A DNA stretch of 44,952 nucleotides, taken from the NCBI GenBank assembly GCA_035349995.1, contig DAOPTN010000001.1:1-44952 (forward strand), given 5' to 3'. The stretch's first letter is position 1; each line of letters begins with the position of its first letter. The notes beneath the pieces were generated by a model. The model made no database searches, was not told the DNA's origin, and saw nothing but the letters and a program-made list of their open reading frames with translations. The position numbers were made by a program, and so were the translations under genes. This stretch comes from Candidatus Pacearchaeota archaeon. Lineage in GTDB: Bacteria > Patescibacteriota > Minisyncoccia > Minisyncoccales > GCA-002788555. Shown here piece after piece: positions 1,410-33,494 of this stretch.

Positions 1410-2324
1410 TCATTCAAAAATTTCTTTGAAAATTGTTTTCAGTTTTTGATCCACGTTTTGCGGTAATGTGCCGCGTCGAATTTTCAAATTATCAAGTACA
1501 GTCTCGAATCTTTGGAACCTACTATTACTTCTTAATTCAACCCATTCAACGCCTAAACTATCTAGCTGCCTCTTATTTGTTTCTGAAAGCTTATCAGCTA
1601 CAAATACCTTACTATCTCTCGCTATAACAGCATCGGCACTTTCTGGATTTCCTCTTCCCATTAATTTAACTTCGCATTTGTATAAGTTTTTACCTTCAAC
1701 TAAATAAAAGTCAACCTCTCTCTCAAAGTCAGTATCTTCTATGACTTTACCTTTAATTTTTATAACATAATTGCTCTCGTCCACATCGTACAACTTGCAC
1801 AATGTTTGCATAAGTGGTTTTTCTACTCTTTTACCGGCAGTACTCCATAAGCCACCCCTTAACTCTGCCCGTTTTACTGCAAGAGTATTTATTACTATTA
1901 AACTTTCGCTTATATTTAAATCAACACTTACCCCCTTAAATTTAATGGTTAATGTGAGATCAAGGTCGTATTCTGTTTCTACAAGATTTTTAATTGATTC
2001 ATACAAAGAATCATAATGTTCATTTGATGCATCTATAACTATTTCCTTTGTTGAAGAATTAAACATATTATGAATCGTTTTTTTATTCAATCCGGCATTA
2101 ATGGCAATATCTCTAGCTGGTAGTTCTGGATTAAGAAATTCTTTTTTATACCAGTCAACAGTTATATTTTGGTTTTTTAATTTTGCATCAACAACTCTTT
2201 TAAAAAAATCTATTGCAAACTGTAAAAATTCGGCGTTAATTAAAGTAACTACCTCTATTCTGTAGTCTTCTCCTTTTAATAATTTCCTAATTATGTTTTG
2301 TGCGACTTGTTCGGTTATTGTCAT
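1410..2324 (-). CDS. Type II restriction endonuclease (PD-(D/E)XK-like)
   Basis: 304-aa ORF whose ATG overlaps the methyltransferase stop (ATGA at 2321..2324). Candidate catalytic motif EREVDFYL...YKCEVKL (D...ExK). The operon context is C-M-R. Confidence 0.6.
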   Translation of the reverse strand: MTITEQVAQNIIRKLLKGEDYRIEVVTLINAEFLQFAIDFFKRVVDAKLKNQNITVDWYKKEFLNPELPARDIAINAGLNKKTIHNMFNSSTKEIVIDASNEHYDSLYESIKNLVETEYDLDLTLTIKFKGVSVDLNISESLIVINTLAVKRAELRGGLWSTAGKRVEKPLMQTLCKLYDVDESNYVIKIKGKVIEDTDFEREVDFYLVEGKNLYKCEVKLMGRGNPESADAVIARDSKVFVADKLSETNKRQLDSLGVEWVELRSNSRFQRFETVLDNLKIRRGTLPQNVDQKLKTIFKEIFE

Positions 2325-3733
2325 ATTTTTCTCTTTGTTAAAGTAATAAATTCTTGAAGGCTAACAAATTTTGGTTGGCCTACTTGATTAAATAAATTAC
2401 CCAGCTTATTTAATTCCTCTTTAATTCTATTTATATATTTAGATTCTTTTTCTGTTAAAAAGAAATTTCTATTTAGATTCAACGCTGCTTTGCCTAATGT
2501 TCCGCTGCCTGCAAATGGATCGAAAATCAAATCTCCTACAAAAGAATAAAATTTAATAACTCTGTTGCAAAGTTCGAGTGGAAAAACAGCAGTATGAATT
2601 TTATCAAACGTCGGATCTATACGCCAAACATTTGTAGTTTCGTATTCTTCAAGCACCTTACTTTTTTCAATCTTATCCCAGTCATATTGTCTTATATTCC
2701 AATCAATCAATTTATCTGTTTTCTTGCGATAGACCATTAACATTTCAGTAACAGCATTTGGTTTATAGGCCAGTGGCTTTCTATGTTGTAAAAATCCTGC
2801 ATTTCTATTTTTTACACTTGCCTCAGGTTTAACCCATACAATATCATCAATAAATTCCCACCCCATTTTTATTAATAATGAATGTACGTCATATGGTATA
2901 GGGTACCTTTTACTAGCGTGTTGCCTACTAATTCTTGGAATAATGATTGGCGATGTATTGAGGACAAAAAACCTACCTTCTTTGGTAATACGATGAACTT
3001 CTTTAAAAACTCGTTCTAAAAAATCTAAATACTCATCATAACTTTGATAAATTGAATAATCCCTTGCATTGTAATAAGGTGGCGACGTAAAAGTTAAATG
3101 AACGGATTCATCCGGCACATATTTTATTATTTCTTGCACATCTCCATGAACTACTATATTTTTTAGAAACTTGGGGAATTCGTCGTGTTTTTGTTGACTC
3201 TTTGATTGGTATTGAACTCCGTTGACTTCTTTATTAATAACTTCTCTGATTAACTCGTTAGGATGATTTAGCAGTTTCTTTAATTCATTCTTTATGTTTG
3301 ATTTATAAGAAAATACAAGCAAACCTCTTATTGCTTGCATTACAACCTTTGGATCTTTATCTTTTAAAAAATTAATTAAAGCAGGAATGGCTTTCTCATT
3401 TCTAAGTCTCCCTATGGCAGAAACTGCTTCTCTCCTTACAATTGTACTTTCATCGGCGCTTGCGTATTTAATGAAAATGGGTAAAAGGTTAATATCTTTA
3501 ATTTTTGCTAAATTTTTTATTGATAAAGCTCTAATATTTTCATTTGAGTGATTTAGTAAATTTTGTAATGGTTCTTTACTATAATCATTTTCTAATCTAC
3601 CAAGTTTTTCTAAAACATAAATAATAACTCCATCACTTTGGTTTTGTAAAAAAGATAAAAAAGCTTTTGAATCATTTTTAAGCTTATCGATTACCTCTAC
3701 ATTTATTTGTTTGCTTAAAATAGCTTTGTTCAT
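2321..3733 (-). CDS. DNA methyltransferase (beta-class, N4-C or N6-A) with an N-terminal HEAT/PBS-lyase-like repeat domain
   Basis: Motif IV TSPPYY precedes motif I FDPFAGSGT near the C-terminus, which is the beta-class order. Residues ~40-170 show repeated helical HEAT-like units (NIRALSIKNLAKIKD..., STIVRREAVSAIGRLRNEKAIPALINFLKDKDPKVVMQAIRGL). Confidence 0.85.
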   Translation of the reverse strand: MNKAILSKQINVEVIDKLKNDSKAFLSFLQNQSDGVIIYVLEKLGRLENDYSKEPLQNLLNHSNENIRALSIKNLAKIKDINLLPIFIKYASADESTIVRREAVSAIGRLRNEKAIPALINFLKDKDPKVVMQAIRGLLVFSYKSNIKNELKKLLNHPNELIREVINKEVNGVQYQSKSQQKHDEFPKFLKNIVVHGDVQEIIKYVPDESVHLTFTSPPYYNARDYSIYQSYDEYLDFLERVFKEVHRITKEGRFFVLNTSPIIIPRISRQHASKRYPIPYDVHSLLIKMGWEFIDDIVWVKPEASVKNRNAGFLQHRKPLAYKPNAVTEMLMVYRKKTDKLIDWNIRQYDWDKIEKSKVLEEYETTNVWRIDPTFDKIHTAVFPLELCNRVIKFYSFVGDLIFDPFAGSGTLGKAALNLNRNFFLTEKESKYINRIKEELNKLGNLFNQVGQPKFVSLQEFITLTKRKI

Positions 3734-12884: not shown

Positions 12885-13010
12885 GGTCTGTATAGGGCAA
12901 CGATCTACTTTCGCAGCAAAAGCTACTATCATCGACCCTGAAGGATTTCACTTCTGTGTTCGAAATGGGAACAGGTGGAGCACCTTCGGTATCGTCGCCT
13001 TATACAAACC
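12885..13010 (-). rRNA. rrf: 5S rRNA
   Basis: The reverse complement contains CCACCTGTTCCCATTTCGAACACAGAAGTGAAA (conserved loop B/helix III region). The terminal helix is GGTTTGTATAAGGC/GCCCTATACAGACC. Confidence 0.85.
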
Positions 13011-13274
13011 TCAAGCTTTAATTGATATGGAATATGTTTTTAAATTTAATCCCAAAAACAGTTTCATTCTCTATAATCATTCAATAAACTTAAAACTTAA
13101 AAGTAAATAAAAATAGAAGTTTGAATCTGTTTATCTTTTTTAAATTGCCTTTTAAATTGGAGACTACAGTAAATGGTTTATTAGTACTGCTCGGCTTAAC
13201 CCATTACTGAGCTTACACCTGCAGCCTATCAACCTCGTCGTCTTCGAGGAACCTAAGAGTCCTAATCTTGGGAG

Positions 13275-13313
<39 letters not shown>

Positions 13314-13477
13314 AAACATAGCTACCCAGCGATGCCCTTGGCAGGACAACTGGTACACCAGAGGTTTGTCCATCCGGGTCCTCTCGTACTACGGACGGCT
13401 TCCCTCAAGACTCAACGCCTACGACAGATAGAGGACTAACCTGTCTCACGACGGTTTGAACCCAGCTCGCGTAAGAT

Positions 13478-13526
<49 letters not shown>

Positions 13527-14304
13527 ATCTTGAGCCGACATCGAGGTGGCGAACAGGGCCGTCAATGTGGACTTTCGGGCCCTACCACCCTGTTATCCCC
13601 GGGGTAACTTTTGTCTGATGATCTTCTCACGTTCTATAAAGATGAGTCGGTTCACTAAGCTCTGGTTTCCCAACTGCGCGGCTTTCCCGCCTTGCAGTAA
13701 AGCCAGCTTTTGCCTTTGTACGATCGTTCCGATTTCCATCCGGAACTAGCTGACCTTAATAGACTTCTCCGTTACCTTTTAGGAGAATAGCGCCCCACTA
13801 AAACTACCCGGCACCTACTGTCCCCTAAACAGGGTTAGAATTATCCTTTTGAGAGATGGGTATTTCACTGACGGCTCTGCCCTGACCGGAATCAGGGCTT
13901 CAAAGCCTCCCCACTATGCTACGCACCCAAAAAAATAATTCAATAAGAACCTATAGTAAAGCTCCCGGGGTCTTCCCGTCTTGTCGCAGGTAGAGAGCAT
14001 CTTCACTCTCACTGCATTTTCACCGGGCTCCTCATTGAGACAGTTCTCTGGTCGTTACGCCTTTCATGCGGGTCGTAACTTACACGACAAGGGATTACGC
14101 TACCTTAGGACGGTCAGAGTTACCGCCGACGTTCACTAGGGCTTCGCTCCCTCAGCCACTTCATATCTGAAATCAGATACAAAGCAACCGGGAAGGTTAA
14201 CCTTCTAGCACTGGTCAGGCGTCAGCCCCTATACTTCCTGTTACCAGTTATGCAGGGACCTGTGTTTTTGATAAACAGTCGCCAGAGATACGTTAACTGC
14301 GACC

Positions 14305-14465
14305 CACCTCGCGCTCCGCGCGAGAAAATCCCAAATCACAAATTCCAAATAACAAACAAATCTTAAATTCCAATGACTAAAATTCAAAACAGTTTTGAAT
14401 TTTAGTGCTTGGAGATTGTTTGAAACTTGGTGCTTGGAATTTCCTTGTGCGAAGCACAAGGCAGG
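14305..14465 (-). repeat. 23S insertion 1 (helix 63 region by eye) carrying the shared hairpin module
   Basis: It lies between the conserved AAACAGTCGCC...GACCC block and AGGTCTTATTGCGAACTTACG. It starts with CCTCGCGCTCCGCGCGAG and ends with CCTTGTGCGAAGCACAAGG. Confidence 0.8.
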
Positions 14466-15083
14466 TAGGTCTTATTGCGAACTTACGACCACTTTTTTGC
14501 CGAGTTCCTTAATGAGGAATCACCCGTTCACCTTGGTGCTTTTACACCCATCTACCTGTGTTGGTTTGCGGTACGAATACTTTGCTAATAAATCCTACGA
14601 AGTTTTTCTCGGAAGCGAGCTCATTTGAATTTTCAGACAATTCTGAATTTTCTCAACTTTTGAAGTTGTTCCTCATCGAAATGAGAAACTGTCTTACGGA
14701 TTTGCCAATAAGACCTTCTTAAGCAAAGAACGGAAATCCAATAATCCGCTCAAACTACTTCACTTCGTTGCTCCTTCAGAATTAGCAAAGAAGGGTCGGA
14801 ATATTAACCGACTACCCATCCCCCGACACTTTTCAGTGACGAAGTTAGGATCGCCTAACCCTTGGTTGATATCCATTGCCAAGGAAACCTTAGATTTTCG
14901 GTGCTCTGCTTTCTCAGCAGAGTTGCGGTTACTCATGCCAACATTCTCACTTCCCTTCGCTCCACCAAAGCTCACGCTTTGGCTTCAACGCAAAGAAAAC
15001 GCTCCTCTACCATCCTTGTGCTAAGCACAAGGATCCGTATCTTCGGTATTTTGTTTGAGCCCCGTTAAATCTTCAGCGCTCCT

Positions 15084-15143
15084 CTGCCCTCAAAGAGAAC
15101 AAGTTCTCTTCTCGCGCCTCGTCTCATAAATGAGATTTGGCAG
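15084..15143 (-). other. 23S insertion 2 (helix 45 region by eye), ~45 nt extension
   Basis: A CTGCC...GGCAG extended hairpin sits where E. coli has the short GCAGGCCGAC tip. Confidence 0.55.
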
Positions 15144-15703
15144 TCGAATAGTGAGTTGTTACACACTCTTTAAAGGATGGCTACCTCTGAGCCAACCTTC
15201 TATCTGTCTTAGCAGAGAAACTTCTTTTTCCACTTAACAAAAATTTAGGGACCTTAGATGACGGTCTGGGCTTTTTCCCTTTTGACTACGGAGCTTAGCC
15301 CCCGCAGTCTAACTACCTATTTTAATTTTCCAGCATTCGGAGTTTGGTAAGAATACCTACCCGAAGGCACAGTATTCTTTCCAGTGCTCTACCTCCAGAA
15401 AACATAATAGGCGCTAGCCCTAAAGCTATTTCGAGGAGAACCAGCTATTACCAGACTCGATTAGCTTTTCACTCCTTACCACAGGTCATCCCACCGTTTT
15501 GCAGCGCGGACGGGTTCGGGCCTCTCTCTGTATTTCTACAGAGTTCACCCTGCCCATGGTAAGCTCGTCTGGCTTCGGGTCTTTATTTGCCAGTTATTAA
15601 TCGCGCAATTTCACACTTGATTGCTCTATGCCTACACCCTAAAACGGGCTTAGACAAACTGACAAAAAAACTCGTTGGCTCGTTATGCAAAAAGCACGAC
15701 GTC

Positions 15704-15896
15704 ACCTCGCGCTCCACGCAAGAAAACTCTAATTTCTAAACTCTAAATAATTTCAAAGTTCAAATTTCAAAACTCAAAAACTTTTTTGAGAGAAGAAAGG
15801 AACTTCGTTCTTTGATCGCTTTATTTTACTTAAAAAAGATTCAGCTTTAGAGTTTAGGGTTTTAAGTTTAGAGTTTGCTTGTGTGAAGCACAAGGC
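15704..15896 (-). repeat. 23S insertion 3 (helix 25 region by eye), ~190 nt
   Basis: It lies between GCAAAAAGCACGACGTCA and CTCCGTCTCTTTGTAGGTCTATGGTTTCAGGTTC. It starts with CCTCGCGCTCCACGCAAG, ends with GCTTGTGTGAAGCACAAGG, and contains AAAGGAACTTCGTTCTTTGATCGCT, which is shared with the intergenic repeats. Confidence 0.75.
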
Positions 15897-15953
15897 TCCG
15901 TCTCTTTGTAGGTCTATGGTTTCAGGTTCTATTTCAACGGGATCACCTCCCTG

Positions 15954-15992
<39 letters not shown>

Positions 15993-16159
15993 GAGATTAA
16001 GTATTTAGCCTTAGCTGATAGTCCAGCCAGGTTCCCTCGGGGCTTTCGTTTCCCGAGGTACTCAAGAAAGATGGCAAGAAGCATAAAGTTATTTTTATCT
16101 ACTGGACTTTTACCTTCTATGGTTGTCCTTTCCAGGAACATTCGATTAATAACTTTACC

Positions 16160-16341
16160 TAAATATTCTTCCTCAGCAATTTCTCAATTTAAAAAATTGA
16201 GAAAGTTCTGATACCATCTCCTTACAACCCCCAGCCGCACCTCGCTATGCTCGGGCGGAATTTCTAATTTTCAATTTTAAATTTCTAAAAATTTTTGTTT
16301 GAAAATTTGTAAATTCCGTGCCAAACGCAGTGAGGTACGGC
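16160..16341 (-). other. 23S insertion 4 (domain I, near E. coli ~270 by eye), two hairpins, ~180 nt
   Basis: CTCAATTTAAAAAATTGAG hairpin, plus GCCGCACCTCGC...GCAGTGAGGTACGGC enclosing the AT-rich TTTCTAATTTTCAATTTTAAATTTCTAAAAA. Confidence 0.6.
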
Positions 16342-16386
16342 CAGGTTTGGGCTCCTCCCTTTTCACTCGCCGCTACTCAGGGAATG

Positions 16387-16527
16387 TCCTCGCGCTCCGC
16401 GCGAGAAAATCTCAAATCACAAATTCCAAATAACAAACAAATCTTAAATTCCAATGACTAAAATTCAAAACAGTTTTGAATTTGGTGCTTTGTGTTTGTT
16501 TGAAATTTCCTTGTGCGAAGCGCAAGA
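16387..16527 (-). repeat. 23S insertion 5 (domain I) carrying the shared hairpin module
   Basis: 16388..16483 matches 14307..14402 over 96 nt with one mismatch. It ends with CCTTGTGCGAAGCGCAAG. Confidence 0.85.
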
Positions 16528-16577
16528 TTGTTTTCTTTTCCTCCGCTTACTAAGATGTTTCACTTCAGCGGGTGTGC

Positions 16578-16743
16578 CCCTCGCATTCTGCTCAAAATCT
16601 CAAATCACAAGTTCCAAATAACAAACAAATCTTATAAATTACAATGACCAAAATTCAAAACAGTTTTGAATTTTGAATTTGGTGCTTTGTGTTTGTTTGA
16701 AATTTGGTGTTTATGATTTGGTGCTTCAAGCAAAATGCGAGGT
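16578..16743 (-). repeat. 23S insertion 6 (domain I) carrying a diverged copy of the shared module
   Basis: AAAATCTCAAATCACAAGTTCCAAATAACAAACAAATCTTATAAATTACAATGACCAAAATTCAAAACAGTTTTGAATT, closed by CCTCGCATTCTGC/GCAAAATGCGAGG. Confidence 0.8.
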
Positions 16744-16954
16744 AACGAGCATTTTGTGCTCGCTGGGTTTCCCCATTCGGAAATCCCCGGATCAAAGGTT
16801 GCTAAACACCTCCCCGAGGCTTATCGCAGTCACGCCACGTCCTTCATCGCCTTAATCTCCCAAGGCATCCTCCATAGACCCTTATTCTGTAGTCTCCAAA
16901 TCAAAAAGCAAGTTAATGAAAATAAATTCATCTTCCTACTTTTAATGTTTGAAG

Positions 16955-30283: not shown

Positions 30284-30454
30284 TTAGCGTTGAAAACGCT
30301 CGTCTCTTTTCTTTTTCCAACAGTCCCTGCAATAAAGAGGCCTATCAGGAGCGGGCTCAAATGGAAGTTCAGTAATTTTTGCTCCGCATTCACTGCAAGC
30401 CCAATCACCTTGATGCATTTTTCGTTCAAAATTCCTTTCTTTATCGAAAGCCAT
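30284..30454 (-). CDS. 56-aa zinc-ribbon protein (CxxC-N17-CxxC), below the ORF-track cutoff
   Basis: My translation is MAFDKERNFERKMHQGDWACSECGAKITELPFEPAPDRPLYCRDCWKKKRDERFQR. The 62-aa plus-strand ORF at 30290..30478 is its antisense. Confidence 0.5.
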   Translation of the reverse strand: MAFDKERNFERKMHQGDWACSECGAKITELPFEPAPDRPLYCRDCWKKKRDERFQR

Positions 30455-30694
30455 AAATTTAACTTTTTAGCTTTTTAGAATCTTTATATAGATTTAAAAA
30501 AACTACAAACTTATTATATTGGCGACCTTTCTCCGTAGTAAAAATTTACCACGGCATTACTTAAGTCGCTTTCTTAATACAAGGGCCTTCGATATAAATA
30601 TCTATTTGCCGTAGTTTAAGATACGCTGACTTAATAAATTATCTAATAATTTTAACAAATTATTGTTAAAAAATCAAACTTTAAAAATTTGCTT

Positions 30695-30718
30695 TTAAGT
30701 AGCTTTGTCGAACCAGCC
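30695..30718 (-). other. 3' arm of the pre-16S processing stem (pairs with 33427..33451)
   Basis: The reverse complement of TTAAGTAGCTTTGTCGAACCAGCC matches GGACTGGTTCGACAAAACTACTTAA at 33427..33451 with 2 mismatches. Confidence 0.7.
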
Positions 30719-30985
30719 CCAAGTGATCAATCTTTAAGGATCTTTGATCAACTCCTTTTATTTTTAAAAGCAGAATTCTCAGCTTTTAAAAATAGTCGAC
30801 AAAATTTAAAAAGATTTATTCCATCGACAGGTTCCCCTACCGATGCCTTGTTACGACTTCACCTTGGTTGCCGACCTTACCTTAACCCCTCGCCTAATTA
30901 GCGACATTTTATTAATTTGCGCATAAGCGCTTCGCTAATTAGGTGAGGGGCTTTGGGTACTGCCGACTTCCCTGGTGTGACGGGC

Positions 30986-31870
30986 AATGCAATAATTGAA
31001 AGCTAATTTTGCGTTCCCACTACGCAAGCGGATTTCCCGCACGCAGCGGAGCCCTATATTTATGCATCTGCAATTTTAACTCTTTTATCTGCTTTAACTC
31101 TTTTTCCGTTATGTGCTTTCCCTTTTTATCAGAAACAATTTCAAAAATTTTACAGAATAAATCAAAATCATTTTTCCTTCCTATGCTACGAGGATGATGC
31201 TTCTGAAAAAATGGGATAACTACTTCAGAAATTTTTTGATAACTGCTAATTTCAAACCTATAACAGTTTCTATGGTTCAATCTTTTCTCTTTTTGCAAAT
31301 AAATACTTCCACAACCAAAGAAATTTTTTACTTCTTCTAGCAAGGATAATTCATCTTCTCTTAATTTAATATAATAGCGACACTCTATCCGAGGATATTT
31401 GCTTAATCCTTTCCGAAACGGATGTATAAATACAGTAAAACTACCCTCTCCATCAGTTAATCCAACTATATAATCTGCAGATAACATAAATTATAGGTAG
31501 AGTCCTTCCCTGCCTAGATTTTACTTTTCAAAATTTTGGCAGGTACTATAACTCAGCTGACTCCCAGTATTTTCGATGTAATTTTTTTACATCAATGCTT
31601 TCTTTTAAAAATACTGGGTCTCCTTGGGTCACTTTTAAAACTTTTCCTGACATCCCAACTGAGGCGGTAAATTAATCTTCTCTACCTCACCGCCCAAATC
31701 GTAGATCGATTACCTCTTTTCTAAATTTGGTTGGGCTATCATTTGTCTTAAGATCCTTCAGTCTTAACCTTGCGGTATAAGACCTATCTTTCAACTACCT
31801 TTCTGGCAGACTACCAGAAGGAATGGATTTTAACCATCTAGCTTTAAAAGCTGCCAAGCGCATTTATTAA
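30986..31870 (-). mobile_element. Intron-like insertion in the 16S 1400 region (probably group I) carrying a homing endonuclease gene
   Basis: In RNA sense the exon sequence reads CCTTGTACTCACC | 885 nt | GCCCGTCACACCAGGG, which splits the universally conserved GYACACACCGCCCGT block. GC-rich pairings flank the ORF. Confidence 0.85.
31020..31487 (-). CDS. LAGLIDADG homing endonuclease (single-motif, I-CreI-like size)
   Basis: 155 aa, N-terminus LSADYIVGLTDGEGSFTV (LAGLIDADG motif), same strand as the 16S, entirely inside the insertion. Confidence 0.85.
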   Translation of the reverse strand: MLSADYIVGLTDGEGSFTVFIHPFRKGLSKYPRIECRYYIKLREDELSLLEEVKNFFGCGSIYLQKEKRLNHRNCYRFEISSYQKISEVVIPFFQKHHPRSIGRKNDFDLFCKIFEIVSDKKGKHITEKELKQIKELKLQMHKYRAPLRAGNPLA

Positions 31871-32186
31871 GGTGAGTACAAGGTTCGGGGACATATTCAC
31901 CGCGGCGTGGCTGATCCGCGATTACTAGCGATTCCAGCTTCATGAGGTCGAGTTGCAGACCTCAATCCGAACTGAGACCGGTTTTGATGAGATTAGCTCC
32001 GTCTTACGACTTGGCAAACCCATTGTACCGGCCATTGTATCACGTGTGCAGCCCAGGACGTAAGGGCCATGCGGATTTGGCGTCATCCCCTCCTTCCTCC
32101 TTGCTATTGCAAGGCAGTCCCCTATGACATTTAAAACATAGGGAAAGGGTTGCGCTCGTTACCCCACTTAAGGGTACACCTCAGGG

Positions 32187-32218
<32 letters not shown>

Positions 32219-32347
32219 CCAGATTCCGAATTGACGGTCCTCTTCGATTTCTCTTAGAGTACATTCTGGCATGTCAAGCCCTGGTAAGGTTCTTCGCTTG
32301 TCGTCGAATTAAGCCACGTGATCCACCGCTTGTGCGAACCCCCGTCT

Positions 32348-32379
<32 letters not shown>

Positions 32380-33074
32380 TCCCAGACGGCTGACTTAACG
32401 CGTTAGCTTCGCCACTTAGAGGGTCGACACTCCAAATAGCTAGTCAGCATAGTTTAGGGCGTGGACTACTGGGGTATCTAATCCCATTCGCTACCCACGC
32501 TTTCGTCCTTCAGTGTCAGGAATGCTCTGGTTGGCTGCTTTCGCTTTCGGTGTTCCCCACGGTATCAACGGATTTTACCCCTACACCGTGAGTTCCACCA
32601 ACCTCTAACACCCTCAAGTCCTATAGTTTTTCTTGCGATTCTTTGGTTAAGCCAAAGGATTTAACAAGAAACTTATAAAACCACCTACGGACGCTTTACG
32701 CCCAGTAATTCCGGATAACATTTGAGGCACTCGTATTACCGCTACTGCTGGCACGAGTTTAGTCACCTCTTATTCAACTGGTACTCTCATCCACTAAAAG
32801 TGGATTGCTCCCAGTTAAAAGCGGTTTACAATCCGAAGACCTTCTTCCCGCACGCGGCGTCGCTCGATCAGGCTTTCGCCCATTGTCGAAGATTCTCGAC
32901 TGCTGCCTCCCGTAGGAGTGGGAACCGTGTCTCAGTTTCCCTGTTGGGGGCCGTGCTCTCACACCCCCTACCCGTCATTGCCTTGGTGGGCCATTACCTC
33001 ACCAACAAGCTGATAGGACGCAGACCAATCATAGAGTGATTTCTTGCGAAATCTTTACTGATAGCCGATTGCTT

Positions 33075-33195
33075 ACCACAAGAAATCACTCTAAATTCAA
33101 AAAGCAAAAAGCAAAAAGCAAAATTTGGAATTTTTCGTCTTTTATTTTGACTTTTACGTTTTGAATTTTGAATTAAATCCTTGCGATAAATAATC
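33075..33195 (-). other. 16S V2-region insertion (~120 nt extended hairpin)
   Basis: The stem CTGATAGCCGATT / AATCGACTATCAG encloses AT-rich low-complexity sequence (GCAAAAAGCAAAAAGCAAAAAGCAAAATTTGGAATTT...TTTTGAATTTTGAATT) that is absent from the E. coli sequence as I remember it. Confidence 0.65.
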
Positions 33196-33494
33196 GACTA
33201 TCAGACCATTTGGAATTACCTCACCTTTCGGTGAGCTATGCCAAACTCTATGGTATGTATCTACGTGTTACTAACCCGTTCGCCACTATTCAGTTCTTTC
33301 TTGCGAAAAAACTGAACCGTTCGACTTGCATGCCTCATCCACGCCGCCAATGTTCATCCTGAACCAAGATCAAATTCTCAGTTATAAAACCCGTCTGCTA
33401 TTGACAATTGCCAAAAGCATACGGGTGGACTGGTTCGACAAAACTACTTAAAAATTCATTTGTTCAATTGTTAAAGAACAACTTATTCTTTTTA

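Follow-up and report, generated by a model that had tools for sequence, protein, structure and literature searches.

[quoted passage not shown]

Ribosomes that lack the anti-Shine-Dalgarno (anti-SD) sequence have been described in several bacterial phyla, and the closest case is found in Parcubacteria. Tsurumaki et al. (2022, RNA 28:1041; PMC9297842) detected CCTCCT in just 48% of these organisms, in overlap with the group lacking uL1, and protein bS21 is often missing from them as well (PMC9297842). Across bacteria, Amin et al. (2018, PMC6107228) examined 20,648 taxids and missed CCUCCU in 128, for the most part certain Flavobacteriia, Mycoplasma and Carsonella, and the anti-SD-less organisms were also devoid of SD motifs. 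Nikolaeva et al. (2020, PMC7782861) found the loss to be recurrent in tiny genomes. Era, which binds GAUCACCUCC in the 16S tail, is absent from most CPR bacteria (PMC10582724). Two further systems dispense with SD pairing by other routes. In Bacteroidia the mRNAs are SD-less, and low structure and A-rich upstream bases tune initiation, but the canonical anti-SD is kept and is hidden under bS21, bS18 and bS6 (Baez et al. 2019, PMC6847099; Jha et al. 2021, PMC7797042). The mammalian mitochondrial 12S rRNA keeps helix 45 and has no anti-SD (PMC10582724), and the mRNAs it reads are leaderless. The phenomenon has therefore been reported before, in Parcubacteria as well as in other phyla, and the locus described here adds detail rather than a discovery: where Tsurumaki et al. 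give a detection rate and the uL1 overlap only, we examined SD usage, start context and tail variation around one 16S gene. The DNA analysed is a stretch of 44,952 nucleotides, called the window below.

The three rRNA genes all lie on the minus strand of the window, with the 5S at 12892-13002, the 23S at 13160-16894 and the 16S starting at 33385 (Rfam scan). The 16S gene is split, and its parts are as follows.

31871 to 33385, minus strand: 16S rRNA 5' exon, model positions 1 to about 1390 (Rfam RF00177, 1291 bits)
30986 to 31870, minus strand: 885-nt intron-like insertion in the decoding-centre region of the 16S; its flanks join as CACC followed by GCCCGUCACACC
30809 to 30985, minus strand: 16S rRNA 3' exon, comprising the helix 44 3' strand, helix 45 and the tail (RF00177, 85.5 bits, E 5.5e-25)

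Read on its strand, the 5' exon ends in ...CCUUGUACUCACC at 31871. The insertion separates ...CUCACC from GCCCGUCACACC, and the 16S continues at 30985. Within the insertion, an open reading frame at 31020-31487 encodes a LAGLIDADG endonuclease (Pfam PF00961, E 2.5e-16). The group I models of Rfam gave no match to the 885 nt, and group II D1-D4 fragments appeared only below threshold. A relative with 88% 16S identity (locus L010) does not carry the insertion. When the scan was restricted to 30650-30986, RF00177 positions 1391-1533 aligned to 30986-30809 as a truncated match; the two exons combined match the bacterial SSU model over its full length, helices 44 and 45 included. A different 3' end, at 31822, was returned by Rfam for the whole window and for 30600-32250. 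This end is false because the insertion splits the gene: the whole-window match claims model positions 1-1533 within 33385-31822, forces the last 150 model positions onto unrelated sequence and ends inside the insertion, and the scan of the 3' exon alone overrules it. For rRNA annotation, this means that the full-length Rfam match gives the wrong 3' end for the split 16S of the window. Another 16S insertion, of 126 nt, was noted near model position 188.

The original prediction had stated that no CCUCC follows helix 45 in this RNA. The 3' end of the gene was examined with the covariance model, which placed the two elements below.

30821 to 30847, minus strand: helix 45, GGCATCGGTAGGGGAACCTGTCGATGG = GGCAUCGGUAGGGGAACCUGUCGAUGG, with the conserved GGAA loop (RF00177 alignment and strand reading)
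30809 to 30822, minus strand: 16S 3' tail GGAAUAAAUCUUUU, homologous to GGAUCACCUCCUUU (gap-free covariance-model alignment)

Directly 3' of helix 45 the RNA reads AATAAATCTTTTTAAATTTTGTCGAC. With the 3' exon scanned alone, the model tail GGAUcACCUCCUUu and the window tail GGAAUAAAUCUUUU aligned with zero gaps, and the five anti-SD positions (30816-30812, minus strand) read AAUCU in place of CCUCC. The Era-binding GAUCA has likewise become GAAUA. The tail is thus of normal length and in its normal position, and its bases alone differ from the canonical ones. A canonical SD-using ribosome carries CCUCC in the single-stranded tail after helix 45, and the window 16S has none there. The anti-SD of this 16S is lost, as had been predicted, and since its CCUCC became AAUCU the ribosome cannot form the SD helix. 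Unlike the Bacteroidia type, in which a canonical sequence is masked, the sequence itself is gone here. We infer that the mature 16S 3' end lies near 30809.

One reading would save the anti-SD by placing it elsewhere, in a second rrs copy or beyond a further insertion that is removed from the RNA, or would make the observed tail an assembly error. The window 16S does have at least one large insertion, and CPR rRNAs often have several. The tail, however, aligns gap-free straight after helix 45, and downstream of it CCTCC was not found in the whole 655-nt trailer that runs from helix 45 to the metG start (30822-30168, minus strand); the original prediction had made this claim for the shorter interval up to the processing stem. 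The first three of the following elements are in the trailer, and the third pairs with the fourth, which is in the leader.

30795 to 30800, minus strand: GUCGAC spacer landmark, 20 nt past helix 45 (comparison with relatives)
30761 to 30792, minus strand: spacer hairpin UUUUUAAAAGC / GCUUUUAAAAA with loop UGAGAAUUCU (strand reading and relatives)
30692 to 30720, minus strand: 3' strand of the pre-16S processing stem, including the GGGG of the look-alike GAUCACUUGGGG (RNAduplex)
about 33427 to 33454, minus strand: 5' strand of the pre-16S processing stem, in the leader (RNAduplex)

The landmark, as GUCGAY or GUUGAC, is common to many relatives at about the same distance, whether their anti-SD is kept or not, and with its distance from helix 45 thus fixed there is no space for a hidden insertion. 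Nor is an assembly error at issue, because the same tail, identical base for base, was found in five assemblies from different samples (ERZ795029 NODE_505, an ENA contig that in its entirety is the window, JGI Ga0116145, JGI 3300010340, ENA ERZ27257473 and Logan SRR8351384). As for another gene copy, the CCUCC-tailed sequences recovered from GTDB through their helix 45 are all at most 84% identical to the window 16S, in a scan that takes one genome per species and to which a second copy is invisible. We give a concealed anti-SD or a faulty assembly next to no credence. The locus is instead a clean and well-replicated case of a bacterial ribosome unable to use the SD mechanism. It corresponds to the definition of Amin et al. 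(2018), a 13-base tail after helix 45 without CCUCCU in a sequence that is not an error.

Two CCUCC look-alikes pointed out earlier are real strings, GATCCTTAAAG at 30742-30732 and GATCACTTGGGG at 30728-30717. We rejected both as displaced anti-SDs since their positions belong to the spacer hairpin and the processing stem. The GGGG of the second forms part of the stem between leader and trailer, which has 28 contiguous base pairs (-45.2 kcal/mol by RNAduplex), is of the RNase III type and, on this modelling, would be removed in pre-rRNA maturation.

We then asked whether the genes carry SD sequences. GGAG, GAGG or AGGA occurred at -20 to -4 upstream of one of 34 long open reading frames of the window, compared with 1.4 in shuffled sequences and with 13% of intragenic windows. 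The sample was extended with about 35 kb of flanking DNA, joined through identical proteins, to some 80 kb in total and 52 genes with starts taken from the source databases. SD 4-mers preceded 3 of these 52 called starts, against 2.0 expected, so that the enrichment of SD motifs 5-12 nt upstream of starts that marks canonical SD users was absent; the same script recovered 21 of 36 annotated E. coli genes against 7.8 expected. The mean duplex energy with the canonical tail was -1.95 kcal/mol for the 52 genes and -6.2 in E. coli. The predicted lack of SD sequences in front of these genes was therefore upheld, and the comparison of hybridisation energies with shuffled controls that had been proposed alongside it, run on 34 to 52 genes, gave no convincing enrichment for the organism's own tail. 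One gene of the same species outside the window (L061, 11347-12204), situated among T4SS-pilin-like genes, has a clean GGAGG at -10. In the relatives L026 and L049, whose tail GGAUCAUACAUUUUUUUA is also without CCUCC, a strong AAGGAGG lies 6-10 nt before 2 of 3-5 open reading frames. Such GGAGG and AAGGAGG motifs may be remnants of former SDs, may have arrived by recent transfer or may stem from mis-called starts.

Loss of the old pairing does not by itself exclude a new one, in which the tail AAAUCUUUUUAAAU would pair with an A-rich element such as AAAGAU, so that the SD was altered and not lost. AAAGA, the best 5-mer complementary to the tail, was present in 8 of 34 upstream regions where 4.6 were expected (z 1.9), AAGAU in 5 of 34 against 2.5, and upstream complementarity to the 18-nt own tail reached z -1.9. 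No value survives correction for multiple testing. A stronger own-tail signal obtained with mononucleotide shuffles (z -2.8) dropped to between -1.5 and -1.9 with dinucleotide shuffles and was discarded, as it equals the intragenic level: the mean duplex energy with the own tail was -3.11 upstream of starts and -2.98 within genes. AAAGA has no fixed spacing and preceded merely 6 of the 52 called starts. A search for enriched 5-mers upstream of starts returned none above z 2.6, and none above 1.9 among those complementary to the tail (34-52 genes). In this respect too the window resembles the anti-SD-less organisms of Amin et al., with no upstream motif complementary to its own tail, the power of the comparison being limited by the 34-52 genes. 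Among their 128 organisms those authors saw no variant SD/anti-SD pair with perfect complementarity (PMC6107228). A functional partner, moreover, would not vary as the tail does among relatives (below). We therefore regard a co-evolved pair as highly unlikely, though own-tail complementarity a little above the dinucleotide shuffles leaves some slight probability for a weak A/U-rich pairing.

To place the 16S and its tail, GTDB was scanned for the exact helix-45 pattern with one genome per species, which gave 16 species, and metagenomes were scanned for non-canonical tails only, which gave 40 further loci. The titles of the MAGs sharing helix 45 name the Parcubacteria group, Paceibacterota and Nealsonbacteria, besides evidently automatic labels. 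Thus L002, L005, L007, L008, L010 and L012 include the titles Saccharibacteria, Gammaproteobacteria and Pacearchaeota archaeon in spite of a Parcubacteria-type helix 45, and these titles probably reflect automatic labelling or mis-binning. Among GTDB representatives the highest 16S identity was 88%, to a mislabelled record. From the titles of the helix-45 relatives and a 16S identity of at most 88%, the organism, an uncultured low-GC CPR bacterium, is probably a member of the Parcubacteria (Paceibacteria). It has in common with the anti-SD-less parcubacterial subgroup (PMC9297842) CPR membership, small ribosomes, a 16S 3' end without CCUCCU and rRNA insertions. Eight of the 16 species with the same helix 45 have GGAUCACCUCCUUUCUA and eight are without CCUCC. 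The earlier statement that loss of the anti-SD itself is uncommon therefore holds across bacteria (128 of 20,648 taxids, PMC6107228) but not within this lineage, in view of these eight species and of the 48% of Parcubacteria with CCTCCT (PMC9297842).

The nearest relatives found were the following.

L010: 88% 16S identity to the window, tail GGAACAAUUCUUUU
L047: 87% 16S identity to the window, tail GGAACAAUUCAUUU
L039: 82% 16S identity to the window, tail GGAACAAAUCAUUU

The tails of these relatives at 82-88% identity are as degenerate as that of the window, yet different from it, at 4-5 of 20 positions; in other relatives the tail is unrelated. Among wider relatives the anti-SD positions form a graded series, UCUCC, UUUCU, UUCCU, UUACA, UAACA and AUUCU, to be set beside AAUCU in the window, and no replacement motif is shared among the degenerate tails of the relatives. 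Since the close relatives are degenerate but different, the anti-SD's loss is old in the clade and the tail is still drifting. Judged from the sequences, this variation is what relaxed constraint would be expected to produce, and not the adoption of a new pairing partner. Relatives that keep CCUCC had SD motifs in 7 of 40 genes against 4.6 expected, in a small sample with crude start calls. Because these relatives also show few SDs, disuse of the SD seems to be independent of anti-SD loss, and the order appears to have been SD disuse followed by decay of the rRNA tail. A neighbour-joining tree of the 16S 3' regions proved unreliable, since sequences are put in the wrong place by unspliced insertions (L017 matches the window and yet groups elsewhere), and losses were not counted from it.

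How starts may be chosen was approached through the sequences around them. The regions upstream consist of 44-45% A, 39-41% U, 8-9% G and 6-7% C, that is about 85-87% A+T, in agreement with the A/T-richness noted before. The predicted minimum free energy of 40-nt segments was -1.7 kcal/mol at starts and -3.6 in gene interiors (Wilcoxon p 0.001), and the GC content was 18-20% around starts versus 33-35% inside genes. With a start energy about half that of gene interiors, these low-structure starts fit initiation on unstructured leaders, one of the options named in the original prediction. Fifty-one of the 52 start codons are ATG. The base before them is U in 47 of the 52 genes (binomial p 1e-14; background 39%), as at the starts 10616, 23085 and 30167 (-) and in L057, L061 and L066. 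This preference is not an artefact of the gene callers, because a naive first-ATG rule also gives U at -1 in 28 of 32 cases. In relatives sharing helix 45 it is found at 52-72% of starts against a background of 32-35%. Positions -3 to -1 are U-rich as a whole, and from -4 to -6 the preferred base is A. U at -1 can reportedly form a pair with initiator-tRNA A37, and it might do so in this species; an initiator tRNA gene was not found in the window or its flanks.

The start context also separates the window from the described systems. Bacteroidia favour A at -3 and -6, and the window species has U-rich positions -3 to -1 with U(-1) in 90% of genes. Flavobacteriia, Mycoplasma and Carsonella (Lim et al. 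2012; PMC6107228; PMC7782861) share with it a 13-nt tail without CCUCCU, the absence of SD enrichment, AT-rich or reduced genomes and repeated loss, but they belong to unrelated phyla, and the window has in addition the GAUCA to GAAUA change, the UAUG context and the A at -4 to -6.

The anti-SD would be equally dispensable if most mRNAs were leaderless and 70S ribosomes loaded on 5'-terminal AUGs. The AT-rich upstream regions do hold many TATAAT-like hexamers, and in 5 of 51 genes one ends 7-8 nt before the ATG. In a leaderless organism a -10 element lies about 7 nt before most starts; by this sequence proxy the hexamers were instead spread from -6 to -75, and their position histogram had no peak at leaderless spacing. 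Many genes, besides, follow one another closely on the same strand, 0-100 nt apart or overlapping, and in such tightly packed runs many must initiate internally on polycistronic RNA. On this sequence evidence leaderless starts are not the rule, the window species shows no sign of the spacing expected from mitochondria-like mRNAs, and we consider mostly leaderless translation improbable.

Taken together, the absence of CCUCC, the absence of SD enrichment and the A+T-rich, unstructured starts support the SD-independent initiation proposed at the outset. By far the best account, and one we hold with considerable confidence, is an SD-independent ribosome whose 16S tail decayed by point substitution, with no SD helix possible. 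The lineage would already not have been using SD sequences before the tail decayed. Constraint on the tail would then have been relaxed, possibly once proteins that bind it, such as Era and bS21, had been lost, and in an AT-rich genome CCUCC would have been erased by C-to-U and C-to-A drift. Initiator tRNA and initiation factors would pick starts on an open A/U-rich stretch, probably aided by bS1, and the strongly preferred UAUG context, with U at -1, may contribute to the choice. A bolder version, in which the SD helix was replaced and not merely lost, is less likely than not, and we hold it as a tentative idea: starts would be marked mainly by the four bases UAUG within open, A/U-rich sequence, through U(-1):A37 pairing, and the remaining tail would be kept only for a pre-rRNA 3' hairpin. 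If it were true, the UAUG rule would be a form of bacterial start selection distinct from both the SD type and the A(-3) type of Bacteroidia. In practice, gene callers that weight ribosome-binding-site motifs will mis-score starts in such genomes.

The hairpin in question joins the 16S tail to the opening bases of the spacer, and its arms change together across relatives. Read from single-sequence folds only (L001, L006, L012, L048, L007, L030, L056, L010, L047 and L039), the arm pairs include CUCCUU/AGGGAG, UUCCUU/AGGGAA, AUUCUU/AGGAAU, AAUUC/GAAUU and AAAUC/GAUUU. In the window the hairpin has nearly vanished (30809-30801), with AAAU/AUUU at -0.2 kcal/mol. The folds suggest that the tail sequence has a role in the pre-rRNA. 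This covarying hairpin and the U(-1) context are the parts of the locus that might repay further work.

Beyond the tail, a spacer module follows the 16S (30761-30800, minus strand), composed of GUCGAY, then the hairpin with the GAGAAUUCU loop motif, which is kept in relatives, then a GGUGUUGAUCGA-like sequence. It is conserved in L005, L008, L009, L010, L013, L014, L016 and others, with or without an anti-SD, and may be a processing signal. A 56-aa zinc-finger open reading frame (zf_Tbcl_2, Pfam in the source annotation) is located at 30284-30454 on the minus strand, between the processing stem and metG.

The overlap of anti-SD loss with uL1 loss reported by Tsurumaki et al. led us to the L1 stalk of the 23S rRNA as a proxy for the protein. 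The stalk RNA is intact and well conserved (13800-13990, minus strand; model positions 2100-2210) and was set aside as uninformative. Similarly, rplJ-rplL occur without adjoining rplK-rplA, which, in some 80 kb of genome, says nothing on uL1 either way. The 23S gene measures 3735 nt against 2925 nt for the model and has insertions of 100-145 nt in several places. The rRNA genes are unlinked: the 16S end at 30809 and the 23S start at 16894 are 13.9 kb apart, with 13 protein-coding open reading frames and a tRNA-Val between them, and the 23S and 5S are adjacent. Further along the window, a restriction-modification pair was found at 1410-3733 on the minus strand, consisting of a CfrBI-type endonuclease of 304 aa and an N6/N4 methyltransferase with HEAT repeats of 470 aa, with a 4-nt overlap; the endonuclease sequence is present in 55 blocks of the public collection.
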